Shown here: piece after piece, positions 48,001 through 50,880 of the stretch
How the letters are laid out: every line of letters begins with the position of its first letter
Numbering within the stretch: position 1 is the first letter of the stretch
Origin: a virus
Strand: one strand, 5' to 3'
Length of the DNA: 50,880 bases
UHGV virus genome: UHGV-0174141
Position numbers: made by a program

Positions 48001-50880
48001 GTGGGCGGTGCCAGTTTCTGCAGAAGCATCTGAGTTAAAATCCATCGCCATGTGGCTTGATGGCGTATCTCTTAATACCATTCTTCAATGCGACGTTTAT
48101 TTCCGGCTGACATCAAACCAGACCAATACATCGGGACCGGGAGCTGTATCTGGTGACATTCTGGCCTTGACAGCAAATGTCACGCCGTTGCCAGCTAATA
48201 CAGCGATGACAAAAATCACGCTCCCGGTAGACCGTCTGACGGTACCGGCTGGTTATTTCCCGATCGTGGCTGTGACCGCATATTACAGTGCTGGCGTGAG
48301 CGGAAATCTGGGGTCAGGCTCGAAATCCTACAGCGCTGGTGATAATCCGGCTACGTACCTCAAGGGCTGGTACCAACGTTTTGACCGCACCGGTTGGCAG
48401 ACTATCCCTGCGGGGACATATGCCGCTGTCGCTGTCAGTGCTGTACTTGTCACCGCTCAGGATCTGCAGGAGAAAATTGCGTCTCTTGAATCCGGTTCTG
48501 ATGTAACCGCCGATTATTCCGGGGACAGCATCGATCGCTATGCACCGCAGGTAGCGGCTACTGGATTAACAGCCGTCATTACTGGTAACGCCATTCTCCG
48601 CGGGTCAGCAAAACCTATATCGGGGACGCTGACATTTGATGCGACAACGGTTGGTAGCACGACTGTCGCCAGCAGTCTTGTGCAGGCATCAGCGGCAGCA
48701 CAATGGCCATCTAACCCTAATGCCTGGTTGGGCGAGAAGCGCATCAGCGCAGTGACCGTAACCAATACTGCAACGAGCACACCGTTAACACCAGGGATGC
48801 ACTATAACGTTGACAGCTACGGCGGGAAGCTGAGAGGACTGACGGCAACCACCTACGCTGTCAGTGTGACGTTTACGTACACGCGCGAGCGTTACGACCT
48901 GATTCAGATTGACCCGACGTCACTCGCACTGTCAGTGAAAAAAGGGATGGAACGGGCATTTGACGTTCAGGAATATCGTCCCGCGCCTGATGCCGGAAAA
49001 GTCGCGCTTTATTACGTTCTGGTCGCCGGAAGCACGCTCGAATTCGATCCGGTTCACCGTTATGTAGACCTTGGCGGCGAGATGCTGGATGGCAAGGATT
49101 ATGGCTTGCTGCGGCAGCACAACCGGCGCTTCCTTCAGAAAACGCTGGCGCGCCTGAATCGTGGTCAGGCGATTACGCTGGTAGGGCACGGAGACTCAAT
49201 CACCGCAGTGTCTAATATCAACAGCCCGGCGACGACACCGAACGGAACAACGCGTGACCTGCAGAGGTTTTTGCAGGGAGGCTATGGCAGCGACACACTG
49301 ACGAACTTGTATCCCGCGCAGGACTGGGGGGATGGCGGTGGTGCTGTTCATGTCAGTATCGGCTGGAACCGGGTGCTGAAGAAGCATTTTGAAGATGTTT
49401 ACGGGTCAGAAGTGACGTATTACAACTTCGGAATGTCGGGGACGACCTCGGCATCTGGTGCGGGTTCAGACCGTCTCGGCGCGATTACCGCGCTTTCACC
49501 GCACCTGACGGTTGTCGGGTTCGGTATGAACGATAACGCGGGAAGTACGCTGTACGGAAACCTGATGACCATCATCAGCACGCTGAAAGCTGCGGGTTCT
49601 GAGGTTGTTCTGATGCCGGTGCCGCGCACGTCAAATACCGAAGACGGACGCTATACCCAGGACCAGACCCGGTATATGAACCGGCAGATATACAGAGCCG
49701 CGATTGACGGAGGCGCAGCATACGCACCGGCGGACTGGCTGACGGACGACAACAGCAAGGGAGGCATGGGCATTGCCACCACCTCTCTTACTGGCTCAGA
49801 CCTGCGCAACCATCCGGGCGGATACGAAATGAGCATCTACGGAAAGGCGCTGGTTAATGTGTTCTGCTGATTCATTTCATTAACAAAACATTGCGGCTGT
49901 CAATTCTCATGACAGCCGCAATGACCTTATTAAAGACACGCTTTCCAGCAGTACAGACCTCCGTGATCGTATGTCGATGCGCCGTTACCCAGACCTTCAT
50001 ACAAATCGGAACGGTCAAAGGAAAGCATAAAAAGCTCCGTTTCATCTCCATTAGTGAACGGGACCAGCGTGCACCATGGCCCCGTTGTGTTCGGAGCCAG
50101 ATACACATCCTGCACAAATTCCCCCAGGAAGGTCAGACCTGCCTCATACTTGCGCAGATGCAGTCGGTTGGCCGTTCCTCCGCTTGTCAGGTAGGTTGTC
50201 TCGCCGAAATGAACGAACTGATTCCCGGTATCGCGCACGCCAGCAGGGACTTCTGCCGTCGTATATTCCGGCACAATACCGTCGTACAGCGTCGGGCTCC
50301 GGAAGGTTTTGCATCCACTGGAGATGGTGTTTCCCGTCATCACCCACTGGCTGCTCGACGTTTCATAGTAGAAATCAATATCCTCCACGTAGCTTGCCCC
50401 GATCCCGAAAAAACTGCCGTTGGCGTTCCTCAGTTGCACGGAGTTTCTGACGATGATCACGCCGCCCTGCAGCAAGTCCTGTTTCGTCTCAAAGTACAGT
50501 TTTGGTCGATTGTTATCGGCCAGCCCTTTCCCCTGATAGTCCATACCGCAAGAGATGCCCTTCCAGCTCTGACTGTTCCGGTCATACACCGCCTTGATAC
50601 TGTCATCACCCAGCACGACATCCTCATCGGTTCCGTCAGTCCGAACCTGGAAAATCGCGCCCACCATCTGCACTTCACCGCTGTTGAAGTTGATACGGAC
50701 TATCTGAGTGTACAGGTCGGAGATAGTGGTCCCTGTTCCCTCAACGAGAAAATAAAGCCAGTTACCGCGCTGAATAAACGTCCCGTCTTCATAGGTCAGA
50801 AAGCGAATGGAGACGGAATTCGCCCCGCTGGCAATTCGGTTTGAAAAACCACTAAAGACAGCAATATCACTGGCCGAATA

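Follow-up and report, generated by a model that had tools for sequence, protein, structure and literature searches.

A prophage tail fibre of the Klebsiella oxytoca complex with a C-terminal SGNH esterase-type domain and a predicted invertible two-fibre segment

What does a prophage carry at the far end of its receptor-binding fibre, and is that fibre the only one it can display? Both questions are raised by the virus genome UHGV-0174141, analysed here as a single strand of 50,880 nucleotides (nt; hereafter the window), and more precisely by the open reading frame (ORF) at 46310..49870 on the plus strand, which was confirmed as real and encodes a predicted tail fibre or receptor-binding protein of 1186 amino acids (aa). 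The first-pass annotation, made from the DNA alone, had placed an SGNH/GDSL esterase domain in the last ~230 aa of this protein. In this study, we provide evidence for an SGNH esterase-type domain at the fibre tip, belonging to a clade from which the canonical Block V acid is absent, and for a predicted inversion system in which the whole fibre gene trades places with a second one.

The assignment of the C-terminal tip as an SGNH esterase-type domain is supported by a sequence profile, a confident structural model, fold matches, and the conserved nucleophile, oxyanion-hole residues and His. The predicted domain occupies aa 954-1186 (49170..49867, plus strand), as delimited by Pfam PF13472, Foldseek and PDB profile matches; the interval 49170-49870 proposed at first pass corresponds to these same last 233 residues and agrees with the domain limits in the model, where the first strand runs from aa 955 to 961. 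Pfam PF13472 (Lipase_GDSL_2) matched aa 1014-1148 with an expectation value (E) of 1.4e-10, scoring 42.4 bits against a cut-off of 32.9. A profile search of the PDB with the domain retrieved TesA and other GDSL esterases at E about 1e-6; the profile was required, since phmmer run directly against the PDB yielded no better than a marginal match (E 0.11). An AlphaFold2 model of aa 740-1186, built from a 38-sequence alignment, reached a mean predicted local distance difference test score (pLDDT) of 93.7 and a predicted template modelling score (pTM) of 0.91, and its strands and helices follow each other in the order found in SGNH hydrolases: Ser963 comes after strand 1, the stretch from N1039 to G1044 after strand 2 and GMND after strand 3, and His1168 lies in the loop preceding the C-terminal helix.

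Foldseek comparison of this model with the PDB gave a probability of 1.00 to more than 25 solved SGNH structures. The best matches were the tailspikes of two Shigella phages, B2 gp48/49 (9d84, E 2.1e-9) and Moo19 gp82 (9d81, E 1e-6), followed by TesA (TMt 0.77), acetyl-mannan esterase, rhamnogalacturonan acetylesterase (RGAE), CE3 and other GDSL esterases. Against BFVD, the top match was the fibre of Caulobacter phage Kronos (E 6.7e-27, TMq 0.70), which aligned over 472 columns and the whole of the 447 aa modelled; further matches included the Salmonella phage ViI maturation/adhesion protein, the Possum tail spike, the Klebsiella phage PKP126 tail fibre and dozens of phage esterase fibres and spikes. 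The confident model and the Foldseek matches together identify the three-layer alpha/beta/alpha SGNH fold with its five-stranded parallel sheet. The domain that had been proposed for the fibre terminus is thus borne out by the Pfam match, by structure prediction and by the family-wide conservation described below.

Residue conservation was counted in 158 aligned family representatives clustered at 50% identity. The predicted nucleophile, Ser963 (codon 49196..49198, plus strand), belongs to the Block I motif GDS (aa 961-963, nt 49190-49198) in the context GHGDSIT, directly after the strand at aa 955-961, and is Ser in all 149 relatives aligned there. Block II provides the oxyanion-hole Gly1044 (codon 49439..49441, plus strand), aligned to the Block II Gly of TesA: it lies within NFGMSGTTS, a stretch that HMMER aligns to NASISGDTS of TesA, and the position holds G in 128 and S in 26 of 156 relatives. 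Asn1074 (codon 49529..49531, plus strand), within the Block III motif GMND (aa 1072-1075, nt 49523-49534), is Asn in 155/156 relatives, and the next position, 1075, is Asp or Glu in 147/156. N1039 is likewise Asn in 155/156. His1168 (codon 49811-49813), the predicted general base, is His in 155 of 155. Three of the four blocks that had been read in order, GDS, G and GxND, are therefore in place as S963, G1044 and N1074. The fourth, DxxH, was a misreading: the sequence is DLRNH, with Asp one residue too far from the His.

This Block V variant, D1164-L-R-N-H1168 (49799..49813, plus strand), has no acid three residues before the His (His-3), where position 1165 is variable across the family and Leu here. 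The Asp at His-4 was considered as the triad acid and rejected, position 1164 being Asn in 75% of relatives (116/155). The motif of the clade reads N/D-x-x-N-H-P-G-x-x-E; the clade as a whole lacks the canonical Block V acid, and nucleophile, base and oxyanion hole are strictly conserved. Without DxxH, a canonical Ser-His-Asp triad cannot be assumed. It does not follow that the domain falls outside the SGNH group, because known members do without that Asp: CE2 esterases and the Streptomyces scabies esterase (SsEst) are active SGNH enzymes in which a backbone carbonyl replaces it (PMC9487903). Because His-3 is not acidic, the residue pattern suggests that the domain probably works as a Ser-His dyad or with a non-canonical acid supplied from elsewhere, for which D983 (Asp in 147/151 relatives) and E1173 (Glu in 140/155) are the conserved candidates. 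Between Blocks I and II lies an unusually long, clade-specific insertion of ~75 aa (aa 964-1038, nt 49199-49423) with near-invariant N978, G979, R982, D983, D995 and H1014; it could make up the substrate pocket or be the source of the absent acid.

How widespread is this domain? Exhaustive HMMER searching with the domain profile recovered 649 cluster representatives at E <= 0.001, including 130 at E <= 1e-30, and in nearly all of the 649 the domain sits at the extreme C-terminus of a protein of 400-1500 aa. When the C-terminal 252 aa and the middle 619 aa were used as queries, word-indexed protein searches returned only two fragments each; it was the exhaustive search that found the family. 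Scanning genome contigs with the SGNH profile gave distant matches only, at 24-40% identity and mostly in metagenome-assembled genomes of Clostridia. Among 50,697 phage genome records, the combination of the domain with the region preceding it, aa 740-1186, occurred in six: Klebsiella phage Kp4852-3 and five Caulobacter phages.

That preceding region is a beta-rich domain at aa 740-935 (48527..49114, plus strand), with strands through aa 743-914 in the pLDDT 93.7 model. When a profile of aa 740-1186 was aligned to 156 relatives, about a quarter matched from profile position 9 or earlier and the median start was 50, and these matches indicate that the beta domain and the SGNH domain form one evolutionary unit, a 447-aa module. 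Upstream of it stand three tandem jelly-roll repeats of ~190 aa on the plus strand: repeat 1 at aa 128-318 (46691..47263), repeat 2 at aa 322-512 (47273..47845) and repeat 3 at aa 545-735 (47942..48514). Their relatedness was evident both in BLASTP comparisons among the three (E 4e-6 to 6e-12) and in hhalign, which gave probabilities of 98.3% for repeats 1 and 2, 98.4% for repeats 1 and 3, and 99.5% (E 5.5e-23) for repeats 2 and 3. The model of repeat 3 (pLDDT 92.2) folds as a jelly-roll beta sandwich with a short helix at its end, and by analogy with that helix the linker at aa 513-544 after repeat 2 is presumed to be helical. The N-terminal ~950 aa, for which additional binding modules had been supposed, consist of an anchor, the three jelly-roll repeats and the beta domain; binding of carbohydrate by the jelly-roll repeats is plausible.

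The anchor covers about aa 1-116 (46310..46657, plus strand) and was recognised by PHROG matches on aa 1-120 with E down to 1e-61; PHROG families matched the fibre in this part only. Similarly, when the fibre gene was compared by megablast with phage and E. coli genome collections, only its first ~240 nt, within the anchor, matched. Hundreds of Klebsiella prophage proteins share the anchor alone and join it to other C-terminal modules, including beta-helix, CotH kinase-like (PF08757), BNR-4 (PF15892), SASA (PF03629), NarE-like (PF21641) and other SGNH modules. Several of these anchor-bearing proteins are mis-named 'flagellar biosynthesis protein'. The other SGNH modules on the same anchor gave no match to the profile of the fibre's SGNH domain, which implies that several SGNH subfamilies are in play. 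A further set of relatives, P0010-P0016, has the same anchor and three jelly-roll repeats at 42-50% identity, followed by a C-terminal module of another type, ~450 aa long and with a GDS motif; no Pfam match was obtained in that module for P0010 and P0014. From this architecture it follows that shaft and tip have been exchanged independently.

The position of the gene agrees with a role in receptor binding. The window is a near-complete siphovirus-type prophage in which the genes for the tape measure protein, minor tail proteins, a TipJ/gpJ-like protein (43155-46232) and the fibre follow in this order, the fibre gene coming directly after that for TipJ, and the fibre N-terminus is the anchor of many Klebsiella prophage receptor-binding proteins. 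An identical 1186-aa protein is encoded by 17 public contigs; at NCBI it carries the name SGNH/GDSL hydrolase family protein [Klebsiella michiganensis], and it has near relatives in K. grimontii, K. oxytoca and K. pneumoniae. Gene content and sequence relationships thus indicate that a temperate prophage of siphovirus type, resident in the Klebsiella oxytoca complex (K. michiganensis), putatively uses this protein as its receptor-binding tail fibre.

Is this fibre a fixed part of the prophage? Four loci encoding the identical fibre protein, L002, L003, L004 and L005, were compared, of which L002 is identical to the window apart from one base. The order in L002 and L005 is TipJ (plus), fibre (plus), a convergent gene for a 1359-aa protein (minus) and a gene for a 183-aa resolvase-family protein, whereas in L003 and L004 the fibre gene adjoins the resolvase gene and the 1359-aa gene adjoins TipJ. 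By blastn, L002 and L003 share a collinear segment of ~7.8 kb at 99.97% identity (L002 7952-15748, corresponding to window 46261 to about 54057), with both flanks inverted. Its left end carries an inverted repeat (46261..46575, plus strand) detected by blastn and repeat search, consisting of 47 nt of perfect identity and 283 nt at 79%. The partner repeat lies past the window end, at the equivalent of about 53744-54057, with its 47-nt part at L002 15702-15748. In both fibre genes the repeats span the ribosome-binding site and the first ~89 codons.

At the outer edge of each inverted repeat stands a 26-bp dyad-symmetric site, TTCGCTCAAACC-CT-CGTTTGCGCGAA, in which a 2-bp core separates two half-sites of 12 bp. 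Its left copy is at 46262..46287, the left end of the segment; the fibre ATG follows 35 nt after the core dinucleotide and 22 nt after the end of the site. The site occurs once in the window, where none is expected by chance, and the breakpoint between the two natural arrangements maps to it. We take TTCGCTCAAACC-CT-CGTTTGCGCGAA to resemble the gix and hix sequences. The 183-aa recombinase contains Resolvase and HTH_7 domains and matches the Mu Gin structures at E 5e-71 and 1e-71. Judged by these sequence features, the segment is predicted to be an invertible fibre cassette of the Gin/Cin/Pin type, flipped by the Gin-like invertase, and the SGNH fibre is the arm that the window holds in the position read from the late operon.

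The other arm enters the window as the 3' end of the convergent alternative fibre gene, whose last 316 codons occupy 49930..50880 on the minus strand before the gene runs off the window; in full it lies at L002 11621-15700 and encodes 1359 aa. Its anchor is 78% identical at the protein level to the N-terminus of the SGNH fibre, and its C-terminal region had no match in Pfam, PHROG or NCBIfam. About five tandem repeats of ~130 aa were seen by eye in the translation. A 247-aa minus-strand ORF in the window, taken at one point for a separate gene without family matches, was rejected as such, as L002 identifies it as the tail of the 1359-aa gene. Between the two convergent fibre genes, a terminator scan found a perfect 14-bp hairpin (49889..49923) with an RNA folding energy of -26.2 kcal/mol (z = -5.7) and a T-run on the minus strand; it is probably a terminator ending late transcription after whichever fibre gene is read.

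A related prophage in E. coli SCU-308 (L001, NZ_CP053281.1 2026557-2031978) contains a truncated SGNH fibre pseudogene, a recombinase pseudogene interrupted by an internal stop, and two more small genes of the SGNH/GDSL type; it has the appearance of a cassette of this kind that has decayed. Elsewhere in the window are the integrase gene (1-1179, minus strand) and the genes for terminase, portal, major head protein and major tail protein. The last of these (34818-35540, plus strand) encodes a protein whose C-terminal part matches Hoc-like or Ig-like decoration domains (PHROG 2973, 4069). A 660-aa DNA methyltransferase is encoded in the early region of the prophage (13523-15505, plus strand).

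Taken as a whole, we consider it likely that this is a Klebsiella prophage fibre with an SGNH O-deacetylase tip, encoded in an invertible two-fibre segment. The ~115-aa anchor would presumably dock the fibre on the tail tip beside the TipJ-like protein, and the three jelly-roll modules with their linkers would form the shaft and may bind carbohydrate. We infer from the fold and its nearest matches that the SGNH domain most likely strips O-acetyl groups from the host capsule or O-antigen and leaves the chain uncut. Ser963 would be the nucleophile and His1168 the base, and the oxyanion hole would be formed by G1044 and N1074. The Gin-like invertase would flip the ~7.8-kb segment, so that the late operon reads either the SGNH fibre, as in the window, or the convergent 1359-aa fibre. 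A more far-reaching proposal, in which a largely phage- and prophage-borne SGNH clade uses the N/D-x-x-N-H-P-G-x-x-E loop in place of the DxxH acid, as a dyad or with recruited D983, and a whole-gene Gin-type switch gives phase-variable host range, is advanced tentatively, at a little short of an even chance. Three observations count against the O-deacetylase and inversion proposals: a domain without DxxH might have weak or changed activity; neither the invertase nor the right-hand site is within the window, both being found in related loci with the identical fibre gene; and the exchange falls within the 47-nt perfect repeat, a possible RecA substrate, so that inversion without an invertase is possible.

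The missing Block V acid is also what a catalytically dead or very weak module would be expected to show, one that binds acetylated sugar in the manner of a lectin, and the replacement of the His-4 Asp by Asn in three-quarters of relatives fits such a module. Against it, the 158 representatives show little or no variation at Ser, His and the two oxyanion-hole residues or in the GDS context, a strict pattern which argues for selection on chemistry rather than on fold only; SGNH enzymes without the Asp are, moreover, active (PMC9487903), and we regard a dead module as improbable. Slightly less probable still is an enzyme that acts on some other ester (in lipid A, in the acyl chains of phospholipid or lipoprotein, or in O-acetylated peptidoglycan, for example) and would aid envelope penetration. 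Some of the fold matches do point that way, namely TesA-type thioesterase/lysophospholipases and two enzymes of peptidoglycan O-acetylation, PatB and Ape1. But a domain carried at the far end of a long fibre meets capsule or O-antigen first, and the structures nearest to this one are those of phage esterase tailspikes and carbohydrate esterases; to our knowledge, Klebsiella peptidoglycan is not known to be O-acetylated. PatB (8tlb, E 6e-4) would equally be the precedent for an acyl-transferase that adds acetyl, like the SGNH-like proteins PatB, OatA and AlgX. This we hold to be very improbable, as a virion outside the cell has no acetyl donor and all characterised phage SGNH fibres and spikes in the cited studies are esterases (PMC11654681, PMC13123978).

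As for the switch, the two arrangements might instead record rare RecA-dependent recombination between the repeats, leaving fixed strain differences with no active inversion, and the 47-nt perfect repeat within which the exchange maps could serve RecA as a substrate. The 26-bp dyad site stands exactly at each outer end, a Gin-like invertase is adjacent, and both orientations occur among copies that are 99.97% identical; on these grounds we judge the RecA explanation rather unlikely and favour site-specific inversion by the Gin-like enzyme.

The fibre itself is ordinary for Klebsiella prophages, had already been auto-annotated as SGNH/GDSL, and is a member of an established class; the points of note are the non-canonical Block V of its clade, the triple jelly-roll shaft and the invertible two-fibre cassette. 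Identification of its acetylated polysaccharide target would delimit host range within the K. oxytoca complex, with possible use in phage choice or engineering, and Block V offers a direct mutational handle on the enzyme mechanism. If the cassette is active, the progeny of a single prophage would alternate between a fibre that deacetylates capsule or O-antigen and an unrelated 1359-aa fibre, prophage host range would be unreadable from one assembly orientation, and studies of K-locus association that treat prophage receptor-binding proteins as fixed would be affected.

SGNH fibres have been described as the commonest enzymatic receptor-binding domain of Klebsiella prophages and as associated with K-loci, and two of them hydrolyse p-nitrophenyl acetate without capsule depolymerisation (PMC13123978). 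The fibres 164_08-KL2 and 174_38-KL55 of that study (Otwinowska et al., PLoS Biol 2026) are, like the fibre of the window, receptor-binding proteins of temperate phages with a C-terminal SGNH domain; there too deacetylation rather than depolymerisation is proposed, and the anchor is joined to many enzymatic modules. They differ in being shorter (about 717 and 839 aa), whereas the fibre of the window comes from the K. oxytoca complex and has three jelly-roll repeats. The tailspikes of N4-like phages (G7C gp63.1, Moo19 gp82, B2 gp48/49) also place an SGNH fold on a virion receptor-binding protein. Those of Moo19 and B2 hydrolyse p-nitrophenyl acetate and are esterases depending on O-antigen modification, as reported in a study that cites the earlier work on G7C gp63.1 (PMC11654681). 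However, they are podovirus spikes rather than a siphovirus fibre, are 13-16% identical to the fibre of the window with a TM score of 0.38 on the query, and showed no sequence-level homology to it in the PDB profile search. Closer in sequence are the Kronos tail fibre (A0A386KRM5), with the same 447-aa beta and SGNH module at 30% identity, and Klebsiella phage Kp4852-3, with the same module at 65% identity over its whole length. In catalytic layout, the Ser-His dyad esterases (CE2 acetyl-xylan esterases and that of S. scabies) likewise lack the Block V Asp and have Ser, His and the oxyanion hole; no specific relationship of the domain to them was found.

The cassette, for its part, resembles those of Mu (G/Gin), P1 (C/Cin) and e14 (P/Pin) in its adjacent serine invertase, inverted 26-bp sites, two fibres and occurrence in both orientations. 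In Mu and P1 the crossover takes place inside the fibre gene, and the constant N-terminal part is left outside the inverted segment. Unlike Mu S and P1 S, whole genes would flip in the K. oxytoca complex prophage, where both genes are complete and both have a start codon and a diverged anchor copy of their own; and unlike in Mu and P1, the cassette sits in a siphovirus prophage and has an SGNH esterase-type fibre as one arm.

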